Virus record (IMG/VR): IMGVR_UViG_3300031851_002880
Span: 1 to 64,000 of that record
Length of the DNA stretch: 64,000 bases
Origin: a virus
Lineage: Duplodnaviria; Caudoviricetes
Reading direction: 5' to 3' (one strand)
Of the stretch, positions 699 through 36,185 are shown piece by piece. A program made the translations under genes and the position numbers. The notes beneath the pieces were generated by a model. The model did not search any database. It was given only the letters and a program-made list of their open reading frames with translations, and was not told the DNA's origin. The first letter of the stretch is position 1. Every line of letters begins with the position of its first letter.

Positions 699-1438
699 AA
701 GACATCTTACAAGACATCGTTGCACACACACATTCGCTAGGTTTTCTTAATCTAGTTAAAGTGACCAATGATGAAAACAGTACAATTGAATCAATGGCAG
801 ACGACAGAAGTGTTGTTATGAACGGCAGTACTAATAGTGTGGTACCAGAGTTTGATAAGAGTACATTTGGTATGCCTAACTTAGATAAACTAAAAATGCA
901 TCTAAGCAATCCTGAATATAAGAAGGATGCAAAGATTGACGTTGTTAAAGCAGAGCGTAATGGCGAAACTATTCCAACACACATTCACTTTGAGAACGAA
1001 GCAGGCGACTTTCAAAATGATTATCGCTTTATGAATAAAGCAATTATCGAAGAAAAGCTAAAGACTGTAAAGTTTAAAGGTGCTAACTGGAATGTAGCAA
1101 TTAAGCCAAGTGTAATAAGCATCGGTCGTATGAAACTTATGGCAGCGGCACACTCAGAAGAACCAACATTTAATGTAAAAACTGTAGAAACAGGTGGTGC
1201 AACTGATCTTGTGTTTAGTTTTGGTGACCACAGTACACACGCAGGCGAGTTTGTGTTCGAAGCAAACGTTGAAGGTATACTAGCACACACATGGAGTTGG
1301 CCAGTAGCACAAGTACAAGCAGTACTTAACCTAGAAGGCGAAGTTGAAATGAGTATTAGTGATCAAGGTGCTATGAAAATTAGTGTAAACTCAGGTATGG
1401 CAACATACGATTACATCCTTCCAGCACAGAGCAAGTAA
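695..1438 (+). CDS. putative DNA polymerase sliding clamp (gp45/PCNA-like)
   Basis: 247 aa two-domain clamp size; C-terminal 'GAMKISVNSGMATYDYILP' resembles the PCNA/gp45 terminal strands; replication-type context. Confidence 0.6.
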   Translation: MKDILQDIVAHTHSLGFLNLVKVTNDENSTIESMADDRSVVMNGSTNSVVPEFDKSTFGMPNLDKLKMHLSNPEYKKDAKIDVVKAERNGETIPTHIHFENEAGDFQNDYRFMNKAIIEEKLKTVKFKGANWNVAIKPSVISIGRMKLMAAAHSEEPTFNVKTVETGGATDLVFSFGDHSTHAGEFVFEANVEGILAHTWSWPVAQVQAVLNLEGEVEMSISDQGAMKISVNSGMATYDYILPAQSK

Positions 1439-3063
1439 TGAATACAGACTTAACTACAGCACAAAATGATTATGCACATTTCTTGCCTGCACTTAGTGGC
1501 TTCTATGCTACATATGTAGGCAAGCAACGTTTCGATGAATATGTAGAAAAGTCACGTATTCCTAATAACTGGAACAACGGTATTGAAAGTTTAAACTACT
1601 TAAATGCACAAGAAGGACAGTTCCAATACAAATGGAGTCTATACTCAGCAGGACATGCTGACTTAGATACAACTAAGGTTGTGCCTAAAGAAGACATGGT
1701 GCGTAACAGAGATAGAGAAAACACTTGGTTACTAGGTGATTCAGGTGGTTTCCAAATTGGTAAAGGTGTTTGGGAAGGCGATTGGAAAGATCCTAATTGC
1801 CCTAAAGCACAAAAGAAACGTGACGGTGTGTTACGTTGGATGGATGCTTATATGGACTACGGAATGATACTTGATATTCCGGCGTGGGTGGCACGTTCAC
1901 CTGAAGGTGCAAAAGCAACAGGTGTTAGTACATATCAAGAAGCAGTAGAAGCAACACGCATCAACAATGACTACTGGATGAAGCATAGAACAGGTGCTTG
2001 TAAATTACTAAATGTTTTGCAAGGTGAAACCTTTGATGATGCGGAAGACTGGTATGAGCAAATGAAAGACTATTGCGATCCAGTTAAATATCCTGACAGA
2101 CACTTTAATGGGTGGTCAATGGGTGGACAAAACATGTGTGATGTTGAACTCCTGCTTAAACGCATTGTTACTATACATTATGACGGACTACTCCAAAGCG
2201 GCTTACACGATGTAATGCACTTCTTAGGAACTAGTAAATTAGAGTGGGCTACATTGCTTACAGACGTACAGAGAGCTGTACGTAAGCACTATAACCCAAC
2301 GTTTATGGTTACATTTGATTGTGCATCACCTTTCCTTGCTACAGCAAACGGACAAGTTTATACATCTAATGAAACTCCAGATAACGGCAAATGGACTTAT
2401 CGAATGGTTCCAAGCGTTGACGAACTAAAGTATGCAACAGATACTAGAACGTTTAAAGATGCTACAACCCAAGACGGTATTTTTAAAGTGTTTGAAGATA
2501 GTCCACTAACTGACGGTTTGTTGGTAAACGATATTTGTACATATGCTAAAGGTGATCGTAATAAGATTGGTGTGCCTAAGGTAAGTGCAGGCGAGGTTGA
2601 GCTTGATAAGAATGATCAACCTGTATTAGACGACAATGATAATCCCGTTGTACGCAAGAAGGACTCTACAAGCTGGGATAGCTTTAGTTATGCTATACAG
2701 ATGGGTCATAACGTATGGACACACGTAAATGCTGTACAAGAAGCTAATAGGCAGTATGATGCCGGTGTTACTCCTAAGATGTTAAAAGGTGATAAGTTTC
2801 AAGTAAGAACAATACGTGATATGATTAATGAAGTATTCGAACAGCCTAGTAAAGAAGAGTCTCTAGAGTTAATTGAACTGTACAGACCATATTGGATGCA
2901 AGTGCCTGGTACAAGAGGTGCAATTGGTAAGAAAACTATATCTGCTAAACCTTTTTTCAACAAACTATTTGATGAACCTGGTGCCGTTGAAGATAATATT
3001 GAATTAGATGAAACCAAGTTGGAGGACCTAGAAGATGAGCAACTACACGGAGCAACACGATAA
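1438..3063 (+). CDS. dpdA: TGT-fold DNA guanine transglycosylase (DpdA-like)
   Basis: LGDSGGFQ, ILDIP, NVLQG, HFLG and VTFDCASP motifs of the tRNA-guanine transglycosylase fold; adjacent folE/queE/T-fold genes. Confidence 0.82.
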   Translation: MNTDLTTAQNDYAHFLPALSGFYATYVGKQRFDEYVEKSRIPNNWNNGIESLNYLNAQEGQFQYKWSLYSAGHADLDTTKVVPKEDMVRNRDRENTWLLGDSGGFQIGKGVWEGDWKDPNCPKAQKKRDGVLRWMDAYMDYGMILDIPAWVARSPEGAKATGVSTYQEAVEATRINNDYWMKHRTGACKLLNVLQGETFDDAEDWYEQMKDYCDPVKYPDRHFNGWSMGGQNMCDVELLLKRIVTIHYDGLLQSGLHDVMHFLGTSKLEWATLLTDVQRAVRKHYNPTFMVTFDCASPFLATANGQVYTSNETPDNGKWTYRMVPSVDELKYATDTRTFKDATTQDGIFKVFEDSPLTDGLLVNDICTYAKGDRNKIGVPKVSAGEVELDKNDQPVLDDNDNPVVRKKDSTSWDSFSYAIQMGHNVWTHVNAVQEANRQYDAGVTPKMLKGDKFQVRTIRDMINEVFEQPSKEESLELIELYRPYWMQVPGTRGAIGKKTISAKPFFNKLFDEPGAVEDNIELDETKLEDLEDEQLHGATR

Positions 3064-3238
3064 AATTGCTGTACATTTACAAGAGTTATATGTAAAGCAC
3101 AGAACACTTGACGAAGAAATAAAAGTGTTGTATAATAAGTTTGAACCTGAACACATACTTAATAGAATGAAAACTCAAAAACTTTGGCTTAAAGACGAAA
3201 TACATAGATTAGAAACACAATTAAAGGCACTAGGATGA
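3035..3238 (+). CDS. DUF465/YdcH-like small coiled-coil protein
   Basis: H-x2-LDEEI…MKTQKLWLKDEI pattern characteristic of DUF465. Confidence 0.75.
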   Translation: MSNYTEQHDKIAVHLQELYVKHRTLDEEIKVLYNKFEPEHILNRMKTQKLWLKDEIHRLETQLKALG

Positions 3239-3816
3239 CGTTAAAGTTAACCGGACTAAAGAACATAATTGAACCTGGAACTATTATTCCTATGGAAGAA
3301 CGTAATGGTAATATTGGTAGATGGGCAGAAGATAAGCTCGAGAGCTTGGGATGGACAGTAAACAGAGAAAAAGGTATTGACTTGCCAGAAGTTGGCGCTG
3401 AACTAAAAACACGTAAATGGGGTAGTACTAGCGGACACACAGTAGGCGCAATGTTACCACAAGATATCCTACATACTCAATGGCACAAAAGTAATGTCCA
3501 TGATAAAGTACAACATCAACTGAGAATATATCATAAAGTAAATGAGCTTACAGGTGATAATGTTGTTGTAAGCGCACAGTTGTATGACTTTACTAGCGAT
3601 GTCATACAAAAAAAGTTAGAGCAAGCATGGCAACATTGTCGAGGTGTTCTTCACCAAGGTGATTTGTTTGACTATATTCGTGGCGTAGATAAATGGGCTT
3701 ACTTAGAAATGCAACCCAATGGTTATTATCAGTTCCGTATTCAACCAGGTATTATGAAGAAGATGGAACATATAGCACATGCAACTAGATCAAAATTATT
3801 TGACTTTGGAGACTAA
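3235..3816 (+). CDS. MutH/Sau3AI-like PD-(D/E)xK endonuclease
   Basis: GNIGRWAE…IDLPEVGAELKT aligns by eye with the MutH/Sau3AI-family G-x2-G-x3-E…D-x4-G-x-ELKT catalytic core. Confidence 0.6.
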   Translation: MTLKLTGLKNIIEPGTIIPMEERNGNIGRWAEDKLESLGWTVNREKGIDLPEVGAELKTRKWGSTSGHTVGAMLPQDILHTQWHKSNVHDKVQHQLRIYHKVNELTGDNVVVSAQLYDFTSDVIQKKLEQAWQHCRGVLHQGDLFDYIRGVDKWAYLEMQPNGYYQFRIQPGIMKKMEHIAHATRSKLFDFGD

Positions 3817-3817
3817 C

Positions 3818-4339
3818 ATGAAACGTGATTACGAAAGTGGTGTAAGTGATACACCAATATTCTTTACAGGCGTAGAAGTTGAAAAGACTCCTGCGTTTGG
3901 AATGAAGACATTGTTTGTTACAGGTATACAAGACTACAACGAAGTAATGAAGTACTATGAACAAGAACAATGCGAACATATCTTCTTTGGTGCTAATCAT
4001 TCATATAATCCTAAGACCGCAGATGAGTTTGACGATTGGGATATAGCAATCAAGGCGTATGTAAAAGAAGGCATACTATGTAGTTTAGACATTCCAAGTA
4101 CTGTTAATTTAGAATGGTTTATGGAAGGTGGACTAATAGAGTATGAAAACTTCATTCCACAAATACGTGTTGTATTACCTTATATTAAACAGTGGAACTA
4201 TAACACAATGGTTAAGATCGATGACAAAGATTTTAAAGCAAGTAATCCAGGTGTTTGGTGCCATAGCCTACATGACTTAATGGATCGAAATAAATTTACT
4301 GATTGGGGCAAATATGGCCTTGACAAAGTTATTAAATGA
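3818..4339 (+). CDS. conserved hypothetical protein in the 7-deazaguanine cluster
   Basis: ATG 3818 after GGAG RBS; 173 aa; GVEVEKTPAFG…HIFFGANHS…IKIDD-like…NPGVW; function not recognised. Confidence 0.75.
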   Translation: MKRDYESGVSDTPIFFTGVEVEKTPAFGMKTLFVTGIQDYNEVMKYYEQEQCEHIFFGANHSYNPKTADEFDDWDIAIKAYVKEGILCSLDIPSTVNLEWFMEGGLIEYENFIPQIRVVLPYIKQWNYNTMVKIDDKDFKASNPGVWCHSLHDLMDRNKFTDWGKYGLDKVIK

Positions 4340-4348
4340 AAGTATACT
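4320..4348 (+). promoter_or_regulatory. sigma70-type promoter (likely leaderless transcript)
   Basis: TTGACA (4320-4325), 17 nt, TATACT (4343-4348); ATG 4355 follows 6 nt later. Confidence 0.7.
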
Positions 4349-4354
4349 AGTAAT

Positions 4355-4825
4355 ATGACACAACACGAATCGTATCATAATTATATGGGACGCAGAATGA
4401 GAGAAGAAGACGCAAAAATGGCAGTAGAAACATCTATGAATAAAGCAGAACGTAGTATTTGGGTAACCTTTAATAAAGAAGGTGTACATATGTACCCTGG
4501 CGCAGATACTGATCCTAAACTAGCAACAGGCGACTGGGATGATGTATCATTCTTAGGCATTCCGCATCGTCATATCTTTCACTTTCGTGTTCGCATTGAA
4601 GTATTCCACAACGATCGCGACATTGAATTCATTCAGTTTAAACGCTGGATGCAACGACTCTATGACGTCGAAGGCGTACTAGAGCTTAACCACAAGAGCT
4701 GTGAGATGATTGCAGATGACTTGTACAAAGAAATTTCTGTGAAGTACCCCAGCCGCTTTGTAGAAATCAGCGTAGCTGAAGACAATGAAAATGGCTGTTC
4801 AATTTACTATCCTAAATCACAATAA
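4355..4825 (+). CDS. QueD-like T-fold protein with HRH motif (candidate DpdL-type CDG decarboxylase)
   Basis: FLGIPHRHIFHFRV…DIEFIQFK…SCEMIA…VEISVAED follows the 6-pyruvoyl-tetrahydropterin synthase/QueD layout, but has LxxxHRHxF in place of CxxxHGH. Confidence 0.72.
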   Translation: MTQHESYHNYMGRRMREEDAKMAVETSMNKAERSIWVTFNKEGVHMYPGADTDPKLATGDWDDVSFLGIPHRHIFHFRVRIEVFHNDRDIEFIQFKRWMQRLYDVEGVLELNHKSCEMIADDLYKEISVKYPSRFVEISVAEDNENGCSIYYPKSQ

Positions 4826-4838
4826 AGGAAACTATGAA

Positions 4839-5051
4839 ATGGCAATCGAATTTAATCGTAATGCATATACTAAGGTATTTAACGACTTGGATGCATATCG
4901 TGATTATTGTCGCTTTGAAGGTAAAGTCTATAACGAAAAGGCTTTGTACAAAAAGGATGATCCTAACTGGATCGCATACGAAAAATGGCGTAATTATATT
5001 AGGATGAAAGCCCGTAACGCAGGGCGTAATTTTAACAATCGGAGAAATTAA
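4839..5051 (+). CDS. hypothetical protein
   Basis: ATG 4839 preceded by AAGGA; 70 aa; fills the gap between neighbours. Confidence 0.7.
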   Translation: MAIEFNRNAYTKVFNDLDAYRDYCRFEGKVYNEKALYKKDDPNWIAYEKWRNYIRMKARNAGRNFNNRRN

Positions 5052-6110
5052 ATGACTATCTATGTTGTAGATATCGAAGCAGTTGACACACGCTATACTA
5101 AGCAATGGAAAGAACATCTTCCTAAACAACTACGTCGATCTACAAATAATGATGTTATTGTTATCAGTGGTGGAGAAGTACCTCAGGCAACTACGCCTGG
5201 GGCTTTTCTAAATTTTGCAGGAACAAATAATTATAAATCACAACAGATGTTAGAAATTAGCAGAATGTTTGCTAATGGAGAAATTAAAGATAATGATTAT
5301 TTTTTGTATACTGATGCTTGGAACCCTACAGTTATTCAACTACGCTATATGGCAGAACTATTGGGTGTTGACATTTGTATTGGTGGCATGTGGCATGCTG
5401 GTAGTTATGATCCGCAAGACTTTTTAGGCAGACTCATAGGTGACAAGCCTTGGGTTAGACATGCTGAAATGTCAATGTATGAATGTTATGATGATAACTT
5501 CTTTGCAAGTGACTTCCACATTGATATGTTTACGGAAGTATTTGATGAGGACTATGCAGTTGATTGGGATAGAGTACATCGTGTAGGTTGGCCTATGGAG
5601 TACCTAAAGGATAGCTTAACTAGCTACAAAGGTATGGAAAAACGAGATCTTATTCTCTTTCCGCATCGTGTTGCTCCTGAAAAACAAGTTGAGATCTTTA
5701 GAGATCTTGCAATGCGTTTACCACAATACGAGTTTGTTGTTTGTCAAGAACAACAACTGAGCAAGAACGAATACCATAACTTGCTAGGTGAAGCTAAACT
5801 TGTGTTTAGTGCTAACTTACAAGAAACATTAGGTATTAGTTGGTACGAAGGTGCATTAGTTGATGCTATTCCTATGGTACCTGACAGACTAAGCTATAGT
5901 GAAATGGCATTACCGGAGTTTAAATATCCAAGTGCGTGGACTGAAGACTATGATGCTTACTTGCACAACAAAGATAAATTAGTTGCACAAATTATAAACT
6001 ATATGGAAAACTTTGATGACTTGCAGGTTTCCTTAGAGAAACAACGCACTAAATTAAACAAAGACTTCTTTAACGGTAAAGAGTTATACGGAGTAATTGC
6101 AGATGAATGA
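5052..6110 (+). CDS. GT-B fold (GT4-like) glycosyltransferase
   Basis: FPHRVAPEKQ and QETLGISWYEG (E-x7-E) donor-binding motifs; 352 aa. Confidence 0.8.
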   Translation: MTIYVVDIEAVDTRYTKQWKEHLPKQLRRSTNNDVIVISGGEVPQATTPGAFLNFAGTNNYKSQQMLEISRMFANGEIKDNDYFLYTDAWNPTVIQLRYMAELLGVDICIGGMWHAGSYDPQDFLGRLIGDKPWVRHAEMSMYECYDDNFFASDFHIDMFTEVFDEDYAVDWDRVHRVGWPMEYLKDSLTSYKGMEKRDLILFPHRVAPEKQVEIFRDLAMRLPQYEFVVCQEQQLSKNEYHNLLGEAKLVFSANLQETLGISWYEGALVDAIPMVPDRLSYSEMALPEFKYPSAWTEDYDAYLHNKDKLVAQIINYMENFDDLQVSLEKQRTKLNKDFFNGKELYGVIADE

Positions 6111-6680: not shown

Positions 6681-7231
6681 TAAAAAAGCATTATTATAAT
6701 TGGCAAGATGTAGAACGTATGTGTGTCAGTATTGTAAATCAAATGTATACTGATAGTTGGAGACCTGATTATATTGTAGGCATTACCCGTGGCGGTAATG
6801 TACCTGCTACTATTATTAGTAACATGACTGGTATACGTTGTGAAGCACTTAAGGTAAGTTTACGTGACGATAACAGCGACAGCGAATCTAACTGTTGGAT
6901 GGCTGAAGATGCATTTGGTTATGTAAGTGCTGAAAATCGAATTAATGATGTTGCAGTTGATACAAACAACAGAAAAAATATTCTTATTGTAGATGATATT
7001 AATGATACTGGTGCTACATTTAACTGGATAATGAAAGACTGGAAGTCAGGTTGCTTACCTAGTAGTCACGACTGGAATGATATTTTTGGTTCAAATGTTC
7101 GTTTTGCTACACTAACAGATAACCTAGCAAGTGAATTTAATAGTAATGTTTCGTATACATGCCATGAAGTAAATAAAGCAGAAGAAGATGTATGGTTAGT
7201 ATATCCTTGGGAAGATGTAGGTACTTACTAA
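6677..7231 (+). CDS. type I phosphoribosyltransferase (xanthine/guanine PRT-like)
   Basis: IVGITRGG, ILIVDDINDTGATF PRPP-binding loop and C-terminal WLVYPWE as in Gpt-like enzymes. Confidence 0.88.
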   Translation: MIKKHYYNWQDVERMCVSIVNQMYTDSWRPDYIVGITRGGNVPATIISNMTGIRCEALKVSLRDDNSDSESNCWMAEDAFGYVSAENRINDVAVDTNNRKNILIVDDINDTGATFNWIMKDWKSGCLPSSHDWNDIFGSNVRFATLTDNLASEFNSNVSYTCHEVNKAEEDVWLVYPWEDVGTY

Positions 7232-7569
7232 TGAAGTTACCATGGTCCGACATAGTAATTGAGACTAAAGATTTAACAGTGTATAAAGACGGATTTCCTG
7301 TAACAGAAGGACACATCCTTTTTGTACCTAAAGAAGAAAGTTGGCAATCGCTAACTAAATGTTTTGAGACCGCATATAAATGGGGTTTTGATTGGGTTGA
7401 ACGTGGTTATTGTGATGCGTTCAACATAGGACAAAATGTAGGAGAGGCAGCAGGTCAGTCTGTCATGTACCCGCATGTTCATTTAATACCTCGACGTAAT
7501 GGGGATATGGAAAATCCACGTGGCGGAGTTCGTCATGTAATACCAGAGAAAGGAAACTATAATGACTAA
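7231..7569 (+). CDS. HIT family nucleotide hydrolase
   Basis: DGFPVTEGH, FNIGQNVGEAAGQSV and the histidine-triad-like YPHVHLIPRR. Confidence 0.88.
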   Translation: MKLPWSDIVIETKDLTVYKDGFPVTEGHILFVPKEESWQSLTKCFETAYKWGFDWVERGYCDAFNIGQNVGEAAGQSVMYPHVHLIPRRNGDMENPRGGVRHVIPEKGNYND

Positions 7570-7774
7570 AGCAGGAGATTTAATTATACTGGCTGCACGT
7601 AAGCAAGCAGAAGGCGAACTTGCAGTACATCAAGCAAACATTGAAGTTTATCGTACAATGCCCGCAGGCATTGGCGAACACTCAGATGTTACTGAAGCAG
7701 TAATTGAAGAATTAAATAAGATGGCTGCGGCACAAGATCGTATTGATATGATCGAAAAATATTTTAGTGCTTGA
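7562..7774 (+). CDS. hypothetical phage protein
   Basis: 70 aa helical hairpin with PAGIGEH turn; AAGGA RBS. Confidence 0.75.
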   Translation: MTKAGDLIILAARKQAEGELAVHQANIEVYRTMPAGIGEHSDVTEAVIEELNKMAAAQDRIDMIEKYFSA

Positions 7775-7799
7775 CAAAAACCTAAATACAATGTATAAT
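7771..7799 (+). promoter_or_regulatory. sigma70-type promoter for folE
   Basis: TTGACA (7771-7776), 17 nt, TATAAT (7794-7799). Confidence 0.82.
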
Positions 7800-7859
7800 A
7801 TAACTATTGTGCATTGTATTACTAACCGGCAATCCACTGCCTAAACATCGGAGAAGTGA

Positions 7860-8543
7860 ATGAGTAAAAGTGAAGAAATTAAAGCCCGCCTAGTACAGGC
7901 AAAACAACGCTATTGGGCTGGCGACAACATTAGTGGCGTGTTGCAAGAAGGTGATAAGGAAAAACTTATCAACGAAGCTACTACAGCATTTGAAAGTGTA
8001 CTAGATGCACTTGTAATTGATAGATATCAAGATCCAAACTCTAAAGGTACAGCGCATCGACTTGCTAAAATGTACTATAATGAGATTATGGCAGGACGTT
8101 ATGATCCTATTCCAACAGCAACAGCATTTCCAAATGACAGCGATGATCGTTATGAAGGTATGCTAGTAGTGCGTTCGGAACTAAAGAGTATGTGTTCACA
8201 TCACCATCAACCAGTAGCTGGTATTGCGTACATTGGTATTATTGCCGCAGACAAATTAATTGGTCTAAGCAAGTACACACGTATTGCACAATGGTGTGCT
8301 AGACGTGGAACACTACAAGAAGAACTTGCAAATGATATTGCTAGAGAGATTCAATCAGCAACTGATGCAGAACACTTAGGTGTTTACATTCAAGCAACAC
8401 ACGGTTGTTGTGAGAATCGCGGCATTATGGCACACAGTAGTTTAACACAAACTACAGTACTACGTGGTGCATTTAAAGATGACGCAGGCACAAAGAAAGA
8501 GTTCTTTGATAACATTAAACTACAACAGGAGTTCAGTTGCTAA
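7860..8543 (+). CDS. folE: GTP cyclohydrolase I
   Basis: SMCSHHHQP, IGLSKYTR, RGTLQEEL, ATHGCCENRG motifs. Confidence 0.95.
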   Translation: MSKSEEIKARLVQAKQRYWAGDNISGVLQEGDKEKLINEATTAFESVLDALVIDRYQDPNSKGTAHRLAKMYYNEIMAGRYDPIPTATAFPNDSDDRYEGMLVVRSELKSMCSHHHQPVAGIAYIGIIAADKLIGLSKYTRIAQWCARRGTLQEELANDIAREIQSATDAEHLGVYIQATHGCCENRGIMAHSSLTQTTVLRGAFKDDAGTKKEFFDNIKLQQEFSC

Positions 8544-8677
8544 TGATTGAGAAATTAATTTACGGTGCTGCCGCAGTTATTTTTATTGTAGGCATAGGAT
8601 TTTATTTACAGCATATCTGGAGTGATTGTCTTGAAGAGAATTCATTCCTAACTTGTGCAAGGATGCTAAACAAATGA
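8543..8677 (+). CDS. small single-pass membrane protein (44 aa; not in ORF track)
   Basis: MIEKLIYGAAAVIFIVGIGFYLQHIWSDCLEENSFLTCARMLNK; TAATG overlap with the folE stop and ATGA overlap with the queE start. Confidence 0.6.
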   Translation: MIEKLIYGAAAVIFIVGIGFYLQHIWSDCLEENSFLTCARMLNK

Positions 8678-9630
8678 TAGCACCAGTATTTGAAAAAGGA
8701 TATCCGTCATATGAAGCAGTTAACAGAAAGCCAGCTATGAAACTAAGATACTCAGAAGCATTTTATTCAGTACAAGGCGAAGGCAAGTTTGTAGGAGTAC
8801 CCAGTGTGTTTCTACGTACATTCGGTTGTAACTTTCGTTGCATGAATTTTGGCTTGAAGAACGAGCCAATGCGTGACGAAAAACAAAAGCAAGGCATTAT
8901 CCACAATGCTGAAGTGCAAGGTTTGCTTGATGCAGGCGTACACGAAACTACAAAAGAGTTTAACGACTTGCCTATTATACATACAGGTTGTGATACTTAT
9001 GCAAGTATCTATCCTGAGTTTAAAAAGTTTAATAGACAAGCAACTGTAGATGAAGTTGTAGAACATCTGCTTTCACTTACTCCTAACGGTAAGTGGGTAC
9101 AAGATAACGGTCAAGATGTACACTTGATCATGACAGGTGGTGAGCCGTTGTTAGCGTGGCAACGACTTTACGTAGAGCTGTTCGAACACCCACGTATGCA
9201 GGATTTAAAAAATGTTACATTTGAAACAAACACTACACAACATCTACACGACGATCTCTACGAGTATCTCAACAGGAGTGACAGAATTCAAGTCACTTGG
9301 AGTTGTTCCCCAAAACTTAGTGTTAGCGGAGAACCTTGGGAGACTGCTATTAAGCCTAGTGTTGCTCTTGAGTATACTAGGGTTTGTGATAGCGAATTGT
9401 ATCTCAAGTTTGTTGTCGCTACTGAAAGCGACTTTGCAGAGGTTAAGAGAGCTGTGGACGCTTACAGAAGTGCCGGGGTGGAATGTCCGGTATATCTTAT
9501 GCCAATGGGTGGACGCAGTGAAGAATACACCCTCAACGTTAAAGACGTTGCTGAAGCGTGTATGGCCGAAGGGTGGAGATTCACCCCAAGACTACACATT
9601 TCACTCTTCGGAAATGCGTGGGGCACTTGA
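8674..9630 (+). CDS. queE: 7-carboxy-7-deazaguanine synthase (radical SAM)
   Basis: EAFYSVQGEG…VFLRTFGCNFRC…GCDT, TGGEP, FETNT, CSPK, YLMP, RLH motifs. Confidence 0.92.
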   Translation: MIAPVFEKGYPSYEAVNRKPAMKLRYSEAFYSVQGEGKFVGVPSVFLRTFGCNFRCMNFGLKNEPMRDEKQKQGIIHNAEVQGLLDAGVHETTKEFNDLPIIHTGCDTYASIYPEFKKFNRQATVDEVVEHLLSLTPNGKWVQDNGQDVHLIMTGGEPLLAWQRLYVELFEHPRMQDLKNVTFETNTTQHLHDDLYEYLNRSDRIQVTWSCSPKLSVSGEPWETAIKPSVALEYTRVCDSELYLKFVVATESDFAEVKRAVDAYRSAGVECPVYLMPMGGRSEEYTLNVKDVAEACMAEGWRFTPRLHISLFGNAWGT

Positions 9631-13538: not shown

Positions 13539-14630
13539 ATGGAAGCAACAGCACTACGTACAGTTACACCGAACGGCGCAAAGAAAAGCATTTTGCGAGC
13601 GTTCCGTAAGAAACGTCCTATCTTTTTATGGGGACCTCCAGGTATTGGTAAGTCTGACATTGTAGGACAGATTACCAAAAAATCATTATCCAACTCACAT
13701 TTGATTGATATTCGTTTATCACTATGGGAACCTACAGACATTAAAGGTATTCCGTACTTTGATAGCAACTCAGGTACAATGGTTTGGGCACCACCTGCAG
13801 AACTTCCAACAGAAGAGTTTGCGGCACAATTTGATCATGTCGTACTGTTCTTAGACGAAATGAATTCGGCGGCGCCAGCAGTACAAGCGGCAGCATACCA
13901 ATTAATTCTTAATCGTCGTGTAGGGCAATACAAGCTACCAGACAACGTTCTTATTGTTGCGGCTGGTAACCGTGAAGCTGACAAAGGTGTTACATATCGT
14001 ATGCCTGCTCCGTTAGCAAATCGTTTTGTACACTTAGAACTTGCAGTTGACTTTGGTGACTGGTTTGAGTGGGCAGTAGACAACAGACAACACCAAGATG
14101 TTGTTGGTTACTTACAGTTTAGTAAGAAAGATTTATACGATTTCGATCCTCGTTCACCGAGTCGTTCTTTTGCAACACCACGTAGTTGGTCGTTTGTTTC
14201 AGAATTGCTTGATGATAACGAAGACGAGACAACCACTACCGACTTGGTAAGTGGATCGGTTGGTGAAGGATTGGCTGTCAAATTTATGGCGCACCGTAAA
14301 GTTGCGTCGAGCATGCCTAATCCAACTGATATCCTAGCAGGCAAAGTTAAGGAGTTACAGACCAAAGAAATCAGTGCAATGTATTCCCTTACTGTTTCTC
14401 TTTGCTATGAGTTAAAAGAAGCATCAGACAAAGGTGATAAAAAGTTTGATGACAAAGTTAACAACTTCCTGCGCTTTTCAATGGATAACTTTGATACTGA
14501 ATTAGTTGTTATGGGCATTAAGCTCGCACTAACACAGTATTCATTGCCCATTGATCCAGACGAAGTGGAGTGCTTTGATGAATTCCACGATCGTTACGGA
14601 AAGTATATTAAGGCTGCACAAGAGGCTTAA
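13539..14630 (+). CDS. MoxR-like AAA+ ATPase
   Basis: Walker A GPPGIGKS, Walker B LFLDE, AAGNR sensor, LANRF arginine finger, TPRSW. Confidence 0.9.
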   Translation: MEATALRTVTPNGAKKSILRAFRKKRPIFLWGPPGIGKSDIVGQITKKSLSNSHLIDIRLSLWEPTDIKGIPYFDSNSGTMVWAPPAELPTEEFAAQFDHVVLFLDEMNSAAPAVQAAAYQLILNRRVGQYKLPDNVLIVAAGNREADKGVTYRMPAPLANRFVHLELAVDFGDWFEWAVDNRQHQDVVGYLQFSKKDLYDFDPRSPSRSFATPRSWSFVSELLDDNEDETTTTDLVSGSVGEGLAVKFMAHRKVASSMPNPTDILAGKVKELQTKEISAMYSLTVSLCYELKEASDKGDKKFDDKVNNFLRFSMDNFDTELVVMGIKLALTQYSLPIDPDEVECFDEFHDRYGKYIKAAQEA

Positions 14631-14637
14631 GATACAA

Positions 14638-14673
14638 AACGGACGGGTTCTTTTGAGCTCGTCCGTTCCTTTT
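14638..14673 (+). terminator. rho-independent terminator
   Basis: Stem AACGGACGGGTTC / GAGCTCGTCCGTT (13 bp with G-U pairs), TTTT loop, CCTTTT tail, 8 nt after the ATPase stop. Confidence 0.7.
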
Positions 14674-14693
14674 GAACAATCAAGGATATCAAA

Positions 14694-15521
14694 ATGAAAA
14701 AGATTTCACTTATCGCATTAATTATTGCATCTAGTCTAATGTCAGCGTGTGTTGCTGGTAGTGGCGCAATGCCAATAACAAGATATAACAGCGAACCTAA
14801 GACAATTAGTCATACAAAAAATTATGCTTTTGTAATGTCTAAAGACGTTGTTCGAGCAGGAACAAAAAGTCAGCGTTTTGAACTCAGACAAGGCGACTGC
14901 GCCGGAGATACTAAATGGAACGATTGTAAACAGGATAGAAGCCGTACTGAAAGGTTTACACAAATTGATGAAATTATGCCTTATGCTAATCAAGTTGTGT
15001 GGGTTGGATATAGTATGTTCATACCAAAAGATTTTGTAGGCATTTCACCTGCAAACACAATGATAGGACAAGTTAAATTAACTGGAGTAAGTTCTCCAAT
15101 ATGGAATATGTATGCAACTAACGGACGACTTCGGTTTGTAGCTAATGCTACTCAACAGAGTTGTTATGTTGGTAATTTAAGTAAGTTAAAAGGTAAGTGG
15201 ACTGATATCCAAATAGGCACTGATCTTGGAATGAAACGGAGTGAAGGATCATTAGACGGTAAGTTTGCTGAAGTTTGGATTAATAACGAAAAGCAGACAA
15301 CTTGTAGTCATATTTTGCGCCCTGTTATGCATCAACATCATTTTAATAAGAGTAAGAATAAACAGTTACATTTTGCTTGGGGAATTTATAACTCATTTAT
15401 AAGCCGTTGGACTATGACTAACCCAAACATTCCAACTCAAGTATTGTATTACGATGAAATTAGGATTGGTAAATCTAAACAAGACGTTGATGTTAATTTA
15501 GCGCAAAAGGCAGTAGATTAA
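14694..15521 (+). CDS. secreted/lipoprotein polysaccharide lyase-like (heparin lyase I/PL-like beta-jelly roll)
   Basis: Signal peptide ending LMSAC; VRAGTKSQRFELRQGDC…DRSRTE, YSMFIP, GKWTDI, EVWIN, WGIYNS, LYYDEI motifs. Confidence 0.68.
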   Translation: MKKISLIALIIASSLMSACVAGSGAMPITRYNSEPKTISHTKNYAFVMSKDVVRAGTKSQRFELRQGDCAGDTKWNDCKQDRSRTERFTQIDEIMPYANQVVWVGYSMFIPKDFVGISPANTMIGQVKLTGVSSPIWNMYATNGRLRFVANATQQSCYVGNLSKLKGKWTDIQIGTDLGMKRSEGSLDGKFAEVWINNEKQTTCSHILRPVMHQHHFNKSKNKQLHFAWGIYNSFISRWTMTNPNIPTQVLYYDEIRIGKSKQDVDVNLAQKAVD

Positions 15522-15523
15522 GG

Positions 15524-15551
15524 TTGACAAACTTGTTAAATATGCTATAAT
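15524..15551 (+). promoter_or_regulatory. sigma70-type promoter with extended -10
   Basis: TTGACA (15524-15529), 16 nt, TGnTATAAT (-10 at 15546-15551). Confidence 0.75.
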
Positions 15552-15575
15552 GTATATATAAATTGATAGAAGGGT

Positions 15576-16901
15576 ATGACTATGTTCGATGCAGATGTAC
15601 TATATAATGTAGAAGGCAAAAAACACTGGACACCAGATCCAGACATTACTCCACAGCAACTAGAAGATATGCGTGTAGAAGTACTTGACCGCATTATTGT
15701 TGCACGTATTGGACTACTATTACGTCATCCTTTCTTTGGTAATATGGCAACACGTTTGCGTATTTTGGCAGCAGATGACTGGTGTCCTACAGCCGCAGTA
15801 GACGGTCGTAACTTATACTTCAATACACAGTTCTTTAATGCAATGTCAAACAAAGAAGTTGAGTTTGTTATTGCACACGAAATTCTACACTGTGTATTTG
15901 ATCACTTAGGTCGTAGAGGTGATCGTAACCCGCAAATTTATAATATTGCCGCAGACTATATTGTAAACAATACGCTAGTACGTGACCGTATTGGTGAAAT
16001 GGTTAAAATTGTAGACTGCTTTCAAGACTTTAAATACGAAGGTTGGACTTCAGAAGAAGTATATGATGACATATATGAACAAGCAAAACAGAACGGACAA
16101 GACTTTTTAGATCAACTTGGAGAAATGCTAGACGAACATCTTGAGTGGGATGAAGACGGCGAAGGAAGTTCTCCAGGCGAAGAAGGCGAAGACGGACAAG
16201 GTAACGCTGTATCAAAGAAACGTCCTAAGTACTCTAAAGAAGAAATAAAGCAGATTAAAGACGAGATTAAAGAAAACATGATCTCGGCAGCACAGAGTGC
16301 AGGCGCAGGTAATACACCTGCAGGTGTTGCACGTATGATCAAAGAGCTTACAGAGCCTAAGATGAACTGGCGTGAACTATTACAACAGCAGATCCAAAGC
16401 ACTATTAGAAACGACTTTACATTTAGTCGTCCATCACGTAAGGGCTGGCACACTGGTGCTATATTACCTGGTATGGATTATGATGAAACTATCGACTTGT
16501 GTATTTGTATTGATATGTCAGGTTCAATTGGCGATGTGCAAGGACGTGACTTTCTAAGTGAAATACAAGGTATTATGGATCAATACAAAGACTACAAAAT
16601 TAAACTGTGGTGCTTTGATACACGAGTGTATAACGAACAAGACTTTAGTGCTGATGGTGGCGAATCATTAAATGACTATGAAATTATGGGCGGTGGCGGC
16701 ACCGACTTTATGGTTAATTGGACATACATGAAAGAAAATGACATTCAACCTAAAAAGTTCATTATGTTTACAGATGGCTATGCTTGGGATAGCTGGGGCG
16801 AAGAAGACTACTGTGATACAATTTTTCTTATTCATAGCAATCGTGACAAAGGATTACAGGCGCCGTTTGGTATGACCGTGCATTACGACGAGGCTGTTTA
16901 G
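15576..16901 (+). CDS. DUF2201-type metallopeptidase + vWA domain protein (MoxR partner)
   Basis: HEILH zincin motif, acidic linker, MIDAS DMSGS, GGGTDF, FTDG. Confidence 0.87.
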   Translation: MTMFDADVLYNVEGKKHWTPDPDITPQQLEDMRVEVLDRIIVARIGLLLRHPFFGNMATRLRILAADDWCPTAAVDGRNLYFNTQFFNAMSNKEVEFVIAHEILHCVFDHLGRRGDRNPQIYNIAADYIVNNTLVRDRIGEMVKIVDCFQDFKYEGWTSEEVYDDIYEQAKQNGQDFLDQLGEMLDEHLEWDEDGEGSSPGEEGEDGQGNAVSKKRPKYSKEEIKQIKDEIKENMISAAQSAGAGNTPAGVARMIKELTEPKMNWRELLQQQIQSTIRNDFTFSRPSRKGWHTGAILPGMDYDETIDLCICIDMSGSIGDVQGRDFLSEIQGIMDQYKDYKIKLWCFDTRVYNEQDFSADGGESLNDYEIMGGGGTDFMVNWTYMKENDIQPKKFIMFTDGYAWDSWGEEDYCDTIFLIHSNRDKGLQAPFGMTVHYDEAV

Positions 16902-35510: not shown

Positions 35511-36185
35511 TTAAATATATCGGCCAAAACCCCAAAATCTTTCTTTACAAAACCAACAGTTGTCGCAATGGGAACTAAAGTCCGTAGTAAAGTCTTCACA
35601 ACTTCTAGTCAACGGAAATAATGTTTCCATAACTCCAAGTGTTTCGTATAGTTCTGCTACGCCTTTTTTGTCTATGTTTGTTAAGTGTTTCCAAGAATAA
35701 TTATTAAGCACAGGAAAATTCTTTCCATTTCTATTATCGCACGGTCCGTTAATTAGGTTACCCTTTTCGTTTCTAAAAGTATCTATTATATCTAAGGGTG
35801 GATTAGCAGTAATACCAGAATAATTTTTTTGTATGTTTTCTTTGTCAGAGGCTTCCTTGAACAATTTCGTTTGTGCATTTATATAATCATCGTTAGTATT
35901 CATTACGTCTACATTGTTTATATAATGTTTTCCAAAAATATGTTCTCCAAAAGTATCTTTATAAAAATTTATTATACGGGGAGCAAACACTCCTTGATAA
36001 GGTTTCTTAGGATGATTAGTAGTTAATGGAATAATCTTGATATCAGGTCTTTCTTCAGCTACATATTTAGATAGCATGTACCCAACAATAGCACTGTCAG
36101 CGCCGCCGGATATTTTTAAAGATACTACCTTTACGTCATTAGGTTCTTCAATATTAATATCTTGTTGACTATTTTTAAATATCAT
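35511..36185 (-). CDS. QueC-like adenine nucleotide alpha-hydrolase
   Basis: ISGGADSA PP-loop; LTRSC…HCDNCWFCKER Zn site as in QueC. Confidence 0.75.
   Translation of the reverse strand: MIFKNSQQDINIEEPNDVKVVSLKISGGADSAIVGYMLSKYVAEERPDIKIIPLTTNHPKKPYQGVFAPRIINFYKDTFGEHIFGKHYINNVDVMNTNDDYINAQTKLFKEASDKENIQKNYSGITANPPLDIIDTFRNEKGNLINGPCDNRNGKNFPVLNNYSWKHLTNIDKKGVAELYETLGVMETLFPLTRSCEDFTTDFSSHCDNCWFCKERFWGFGRYI

Follow-up and report, generated by a model that had tools for sequence, protein, structure and literature searches.

The 64,000-nucleotide (nt) stretch of DNA analysed here (hereafter the window; positions 1 to 64,000 of the 87-kb virus record IMGVR_UViG_3300031851_002880), which derives from an uncultured marine giant phage, encodes a 193-amino-acid endonuclease with a predicted MutH/Sau3AI-type fold, the second gene after a DpdA-like gene in a putative 7-deazaguanine modification cluster. 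This nuclease gene is not a fixed part of that cluster but an optional cassette; its history is discordant with that of its flanks, and it is passed between phage lineages by lateral transfer, accompanied by a short piece of flanking DNA. Because the gene can be dispensed with, shows a seamless insertion, is exchanged laterally along with a short flank and occurs at several junctions, we regard a free-standing homing-type mobile endonuclease, belonging to a new family with the MutH fold, as its likeliest identity (probability of about 0.5). The source record is 23% complete according to CheckV, and the CheckV-based completeness figures imply genomes of about 350 kb.

A search with the DpdA-like protein gave 559 confirmed viral stretches, from which the best 80 were kept, near-duplicates included. 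Both the DpdA-like gene and p173, the right-hand neighbour of the nuclease gene in the window, were present in 77 of these 80 loci, and a member of the nuclease family was found between them in only four of the 77; the array was intact without the nuclease in the other 73. In the co-occurrence with dpdA across phages, proposed as a check of the original prediction, the nuclease gene thus proved sporadic, an outcome that had been named as refuting that prediction. Three of the four carriers (L021, L028 and L088) are contigs already found via the nuclease, while the fourth, L055, encodes a family member of 179 amino acids with about 28% identity. A further set of loci, L001–L018, was picked by the presence of the nuclease, and 16 of these 18 display the same gene order, i.e. 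epimerase, p247, DpdA-like, DUF465, nuclease, p173, p156, p88, p352 and, further along, PRTase, (HIT), FolE and QueE.

The junction between DUF465 and p173 is a general insertion hotspot. Among the 55 non-carriers with a detected DUF465 gene, the gap between DUF465 and p173 was at most 18 nt in 43 and held unrelated small inserts (79–724 nt) in the remaining 12. Nuclease-less relatives with inserts at the junction include L030–L032, L036, L053, L057 and L089–L091, and the junction of L034 contains a gene for a PsiE-family membrane protein (7735–8145; Pfam E = 2.2e-20) plus small open reading frames (ORFs). The nuclease cassette itself measures 583 bp and is seamless, with ATGA on each side, between two genes that are conserved and translationally coupled. 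In empty alleles such as L048 and L079 the ATG of p173 lies inside an ATGA overlap with the stop codon of DUF465, exactly where the window has the ATG of the nuclease gene. Seawater DNA contigs from two runs, in which the filled allele was also found, contained joints that connect window positions 3238 to 3818, 3202 to 3818 and 3205 to 3818; the sides of these joints are just 28–33 nt long at 90% likeness, and are most simply explained by cassette-less relatives in the same samples. In both L006 (8602–11319) and L007, p173 occurs twice just downstream of the nuclease gene, as a truncated copy and, some 1.9 kb from it, a complete but divergent one.

Nuclease alleles have been exchanged independently of those of the DpdA-like gene. 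Between the window and L001 the nuclease is 93% identical at the amino acid level, compared with 75% for the DpdA-like protein, 76% for p173 and 74% for DUF465, and L006 and L008 likewise share 82% identity in the nuclease vs 69%, 61% and 64%, respectively, in the same three neighbours. Between the window and L013, on the other hand, the nuclease (49%) and DUF465 (46%) are far less alike than the DpdA-like protein (89%) and p173 (82%). At the nucleotide level, a tract with sharp edges, comprising most of DUF465, the nuclease gene and the first ~110 nt of p173, is 92–98% identical to L001 and L003, whereas the identity of its flanks is 45–80%; the pattern is inverted in the comparison with L013. 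DUF465 allele types co-vary with nuclease types, and DUF465 is partly co-exchanged with the nuclease. When the 12 carriers were mapped onto a maximum-likelihood phylogeny built from 74 distinct DpdA-like sequences, at least seven gains or losses of the nuclease were required, all of them forced by starred branches; random shuffles of the carrier labels gave a mean of 11.4 changes, and none of 500 was as low, on a tree in which carriers are over-sampled because L001–L018 were chosen for having the nuclease.

The family is also found elsewhere in phage genomes. A search of viral contigs with a degenerate DNA motif based on the catalytic segment retrieved 17 stretches, all 17 of which encode family members (3 already seen and 14 new). 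In one of the new loci, L107, the nuclease gene lies between p173 and p156, i.e. at another junction of the same cluster, and the other 13 have no DpdA-like, p173, FolE or QueE homologue within the locus. An HNH endonuclease gene lies immediately upstream of the nuclease gene in L101, and an HNH-like gene immediately downstream of it in L015. In L015 (interval 6682–9027) and L016 the nuclease gene is located between an AAA ATPase gene and a DUF2201 (metallopeptidase/VWA) gene, together with genes for a 437-amino-acid unknown protein and the HNH-like protein. This AAA–DUF2201 interval looks like a second variable hotspot; its counterpart in the window (13539–16901) has a polysaccharide-lyase-like gene instead. 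Further neighbours are MazG (L104), ClpX with an exoribonuclease-like gene (L108) and a helicase (L116), and a DNA ligase lies 0.9–3.9 kb from the nuclease gene in four loci, on varying sides. Across these contexts we found no conserved partner gene, and altogether the family occupies no fewer than five junctions in related phages, with an HNH gene alongside in two cases. The L015 record also has a DpdA-like gene, about 19 kb from its nuclease gene, while eight other records without a DpdA-like match are fragments (5–32% complete) that are uninformative either way.

The nuclease ORF is a real gene, not a chance ORF, because it has 26 close homologues, its family comprises 245 representative clusters at E ≤ 1e-3 (exhaustive phmmer; nearly all about 190 amino acids long) and its dN/dS ratios in three allele pairs were 0.32, 0.20 and 0.17; it is under purifying selection. 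The opposite strand has just short ORFs (40–83 amino acids) without support. Translational coupling, and the place of the nuclease gene as the second after dpdA, had been noted in the original prediction and are indeed present: the nuclease start shares an ATGA with the DUF465 stop, and DUF465 itself starts within the 3' end of the gene encoding the 541-amino-acid DpdA-like protein (Table 1). Two studies yielded RNA-library contigs that span parts of the ORF, with possible DNA carry-over, and these are hence no proof of expression; a promoter and terminator scan gave nine promoter-like sites vs 6.6 expected.

Table 1. Coordinates in the window of the nuclease cassette, its borders and its neighbours.
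Feature	Position	Strand	Basis or remark
Gene for the 193-amino-acid MutH/Sau3AI-fold PD-(D/E)xK endonuclease (predicted); putative catalytic residues E32, D49, E56, K58	3235..3816	+	ORF, AlphaFold2, Foldseek, conservation, dN/dS
Left cassette border, ATGA in which the nuclease start overlaps the DUF465 stop	3235..3238	+	Same ATGA starts p173 in empty alleles
Right cassette border, second ATGA, the p173 start, 1 nt past the nuclease stop	3818..3821	+	
67-amino-acid DUF465 gene, left neighbour of the nuclease	3035..3238	+	Pfam PF04325, E = 7.7e-9
p173, conserved gene for a 173-amino-acid protein, right neighbour of the nuclease	3818..4339	+	Abuts DUF465 in cassette-less relatives
Laterally exchanged tract, ~870 bp	about 3060..3930		Nucleotide identity to L001 and L003
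541-amino-acid TGT-fold protein, DpdA-like	1438..3063	+	AlphaFold2 (pLDDT 66), Foldseek
GTP cyclohydrolase I (FolE)	7860..8543	+	Pfam PF01227, E = 5.6e-38
QueE-like radical SAM enzyme	8653..9630	+	NCBIfam QueE models, E = 7e-12 to 1e-7, all below cut-off

Structure prediction supported a MutH/Sau3AI/MvaI-BcnI fold for the nuclease, in agreement with the PD-(D/E)xK-like protein recognized from sequence in the original prediction. The AlphaFold2 model, built with 25 homologues, had a predicted local distance difference test score (pLDDT) of 87.8 and a predicted TM-score of 0.82; in Foldseek its best PDB match was MutH (2aoq_A; E = 8.8e-8, probability 1.0, TMq 0.65), and all nine PDB matches with E ≤ 1e-3 were MutH, Sau3AI or MvaI chains. 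The motif described earlier (G-x2-G-x3-E ... D-x4-GAELKT) was located at G25-N-I-G28-R-W-A-E32 and D49-L-P-E-V-G-A-E56-L-K58-T and is conserved family-wide: in an alignment of 91 members D49 and K58 are invariant, and G28, E32, E56 and R60 are among the columns with at least 90% conservation. Profile searches of PDB sequences with the nuclease family returned nothing significant, the sole match being MutH at a non-significant E = 2; this alignment pairs E32, D49, E56 and K58 with the E...D-x6-E-x-K of MutH, residues which we take to be its catalytic E56/D70/E77/K79 (Escherichia coli numbering). With a PD-(D/E)xK core and the catalytic E...D-x6-E-x-K present, the protein is very probably a catalytically active, single-domain, Mg2+-dependent endonuclease, predicted to cleave DNA.

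Available family models recognize this protein poorly. Pfam MutH (PF02976) gave 17.5 bits, below its gathering threshold of 23 (E = 0.0039), and NCBIfam Sau3AI (NF040973) gave 20.7 bits vs a cut-off of 300 (E = 1.6e-4); searches with PHROGs and PADLOC yielded no match. Across the 91 family members, Pfam MutH reached E ≤ 0.01 in 10 (best 0.0011) and MvaI_BcnI (PF15515) was weakly matched by two. Proteins of the Sau3AI family have two tandem MutH-like domains in about 470–490 amino acids, whereas this nuclease is one 193-amino-acid domain. As the nuclease scores too low for the Pfam MutH and NCBIfam Sau3AI models and has no second Sau3AI domain, we assign it to a new, previously unannotated family inside the MutH/Sau3AI/MvaI fold. 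Its neighbours in a language-model search included viral clusters of about 185 amino acids labelled MutH/Sau3AI (score 0.90), which we treat as a lead only.

The family is almost confined to uncultured marine phages, in records that are 5–67% complete (CheckV). With four family members as queries, no homologue was found in 50,697 deposited phage genomes, and a DNA search with the window region likewise gave no match in the deposited-phage collection. A motif similar to that used on viral contigs found two stretches in 185,579 prokaryote genomes, a narrow pattern that is no survey; of the two, one is a weak relative (E = 9e-7) from a Paceibacterota metagenome-assembled genome. Locus searches from the single distant members P0028 and P0045 returned nothing useful. 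The phage lineage itself is widespread in seawater. Sequence near-identical to parts of window positions 2800–4400 occurred in 20 seawater or marine metagenome runs from 18 studies (2015–2025), six of these runs being from RNA libraries.

The gene upstream of DUF465 was called dpdA in the original prediction, an identity that the predicted fold and the gene neighbourhood suggest and that no family model recognizes. Sequence searches with the 541-amino-acid protein gave no match in Pfam, NCBIfam, PHROG or the PDB; the Pfam tRNA-guanine transglycosylase (TGT) model (PF01702) had no match at E ≤ 10 across the whole record, nor at E ≤ 0.1 when run on this protein. Its AlphaFold2 model is modest, with top Foldseek matches that are all tRNA-guanine transglycosylases (E = 1.2e-6, probability 1.0, TMt ~0.48), and a protein atlas lead likewise pointed to TGT. 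Because of this predicted TGT fold and the nearby FolE and QueE genes, 4.8 kb downstream, the label 'DpdA-like' seems reasonable. At E ≤ 1e-3 the family of this protein included more than 7,319 clusters (90% identity) among 8,000 candidates, all annotated as 'hypothetical', and deposited phages with a homologue are the PA5oct-like Pseudomonas jumbo phages (33% identity), Sinorhizobium phage Phosso and Vibrio phage 2.275.O. The DNA of PA5oct is reported to resist several restriction enzymes with G-containing sites and to encode QueE and PTPS homologues (preprint PMC12191111). The C-terminal third of the TGT-fold gene (window positions 2500–3060) is hypervariable, with 29–56% nucleotide identity to L001, L004 and L008 vs 70–90% in the rest of the gene, and a stretch of about 30 amino acids in this third is absent from L034 and L055.

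By standard models the 7-deazaguanine pathway looks incomplete. PTPS/QueD had no match at E ≤ 1 in the window or the 87-kb record, and QueC just a sub-threshold one (E = 0.003; 35520–35684, minus strand). Nor did QueC turn up in 12 related records, among them one of 237 kb and known carriers of the cluster, and it is unusable as a pathway marker for that reason. The QueC/QueD gap reflects either very divergent enzymes or an inserted base other than preQ0. Between the TGT-fold gene and PRTase/HIT/FolE/QueE, the function-unknown genes p173, p156 (phrog_17812), p88 and p352 (window positions 3818–6110) form a tightly conserved array in essentially all related loci, and may encode steps of the modification pathway.

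If the nuclease is a homing-type endonuclease, it would act during co-infection by introducing a nick or a cut close to the DUF465/p173 junction of a related phage whose allele lacks the cassette. When this damage was mended by recombination, with the carrier genome as template, the recipient would acquire the cassette and the flank next to it. Its sporadic presence at one site among relatives, and its discordant history with a co-converted flank, are as would be expected of a homing gene. A number of points weigh against this reading. Since the same junction takes unrelated cargo in other relatives, ordinary recombination at an accessory hotspot could suffice. The small junction inserts contained no degenerate nuclease remnant (all tblastn E ≥ 0.05), which counts against homing because its cycle predicts some remnants. 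Each of six records (87–237 kb) contained one nuclease copy. Moreover, most of the closest relatives (16 of 18) are found in the DpdA cluster, as is L107 at another junction, and the nuclease may have some affinity for that cluster. Cleavage activity, the target site and homing itself are inferred. It is doubtful that the gene is instead an accessory ('moron'-type) nuclease, used for example in host-DNA breakdown or counter-defence and passively shuffled by homologous recombination at the hotspot. Such a role would suit a junction that holds other cargo (the PsiE-like gene and small ORFs of L034, and inserts of 79–297 nt elsewhere), the one copy per record and the purifying selection; the occurrence of the family at five or more junctions, two of them next to HNH genes, the tight centring of the exchanged tract on the nuclease and the status of nucleases as classic self-mobilising cargo speak against it, none of these being decisive.

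The original prediction had paired DpdA and the nuclease as modification and restriction. In this reading the nuclease would cut or nick a short G-containing site in DNA free of 7-deazaguanine, be it host DNA, competitor DNA or newly made strands, and DpdA-modified phage DNA would be spared. The nuclease does adjoin, and is translationally coupled in, the TGT-fold/FolE/QueE cluster; most of its closest homologue loci (16/18, plus L107) are in that cluster, and the L015 record has a DpdA-like gene as well. Also as first described, GATC occurs often in the window, at 167 sites in the 64 kb (ratio of observed to expected 0.95), and because it is not avoided a frequent cutter would need some protection; PA5oct, with its TGT-fold homologue of 33% identity, has DNA reported as resistant to G-site enzymes (PMC12191111). 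The pairing is nevertheless unsupported, because the nuclease is sporadic (4/77), its alleles are exchanged independently of those of DpdA, and it occurs at other genome sites with no DpdA-like gene nearby: 73 of 77 related clusters do without it, 13 of the 14 further loci contain no DpdA-like, FolE or QueE homologue, no partner gene is conserved across contexts, and a search of the 87-kb record (23% complete) revealed no Dam-type methylase (PF02086). Neither the abundance of GATC nor the missing methylase match decides the matter. We consider such a pair unlikely, while modification may serve the nuclease as self-immunity. More improbable still is a selfish cassette that combines homing or marker exclusion with the 7-deazaguanine chemistry of the phage, in which the enzyme would cut a G-containing target in unmodified or differently modified co-infecting relatives and the DpdA-modified carrier copy would be immune; this would explain why most copies lie in the DpdA cluster and yet are optional and laterally exchanged. 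We give very little credence to a strand-discriminating nickase acting like MutH in mismatch repair, replication or recombination of the phage. MutH, a monomeric nickase, is the closest structural match, and the nuclease similarly has a single domain and one active site; such a role fits poorly because the gene is dispensable in most relatives, and the lack of a Dam-type methylase match in the record, the smaller size and the low Pfam score (193 amino acids vs MutH chains of 214–227; 17.5 vs 23 bits) also count against it.

Other short palindromes differ from GATC in the window. CGCG is strongly depleted (7 sites vs 38.7 expected from a Markov model), and AGCT (0.66), GGCC (0.60) and CATG (0.73) are also low; these depletions may represent avoidance of host restriction sites.

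The attractive idea of a phage-borne deazaguanine restriction-modification pair is hence replaced by the concrete one of a mobile cassette: a compact MutH-fold family of 193 amino acids, left unassigned by Pfam, PHROG and NCBIfam at their cut-offs, that behaves as a mobile element in marine phages that are abundant. Should homing be confirmed, the MutH/Sau3AI fold would join the catalytic scaffolds of free-standing homing endonucleases, and the family would offer small, possibly nicking, sequence-specific enzymes with natural alleles that are 28–93% identical at one site. The neighbouring TGT-fold protein, for its part, represents a very large family that is missed by current models.

Compared with known systems, the locus resembles the bacterial Dpd and phage DpdA clusters (PMC6884629, PMC10516641, PMC10164549) in having a TGT-fold protein near FolE and QueE. 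The bacterial version of Dpd is reported to be a restriction-modification system (PMC10164549), and the portions of the phage DpdA literature covered by our search make no mention of a MutH-like nuclease. Here the nuclease is optional beside the TGT-fold gene, and the 541-amino-acid protein has no Pfam TGT match. MutH (PDB 2aoq, 2aor, 2azo and 1azo) is the nickase of methyl-directed mismatch repair, which is activated by MutL and cuts the unmethylated strand at hemimethylated GATC. This best structural match is like the nuclease a single-domain protein and shares its G-x2-G-x3-E ... D-x6-E-x-K layout in the profile alignment, with about 14% identity; unlike MutH, the nuclease is phage-borne, sporadic and laterally mobile. 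Sau3AI, a type IIE enzyme (PDB 4pxg, 7xm0 and 2reu), also matches the fold (E = 1.6e-4), with chains of about 465 amino acids containing a tandem duplicated MutH-like domain vs one domain in the nuclease; no cognate methyltransferase was identified for the nuclease. MvaI (E = 7.3e-4) and BcnI (E = 0.1) (PDB 2oaa and 2odi) belong to the same fold clan; they are parts of bacterial restriction-modification systems with a methyltransferase, whereas the nuclease is a lone phage gene. Both are small monomeric enzymes that cut both strands, so that a single-domain member of this fold need not be a mere nickase.

The seg and mob families of free-standing homing endonucleases in T4-like phages are multi-copy, which sets them apart from the nuclease with its single copy per record. 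Their catalytic folds are also different, GIY-YIG in seg and HNH in mob as opposed to a predicted MutH-type PD-(D/E)xK here, and the parts of the homing-endonuclease literature reached by our search describe no MutH-type scaffold. In their genetics the two are alike: as with T4-like homing genes, a lone nuclease lies between conserved genes, is sporadic and discordant with its flanks, and is transferred together with a short flank, and filled and empty alleles coexist, for the nuclease cassette in the same seawater runs. In T4, mobE provides a reported case of endonuclease-driven gene conversion that mobilises the gene together with flanking DNA (PMC2790892).

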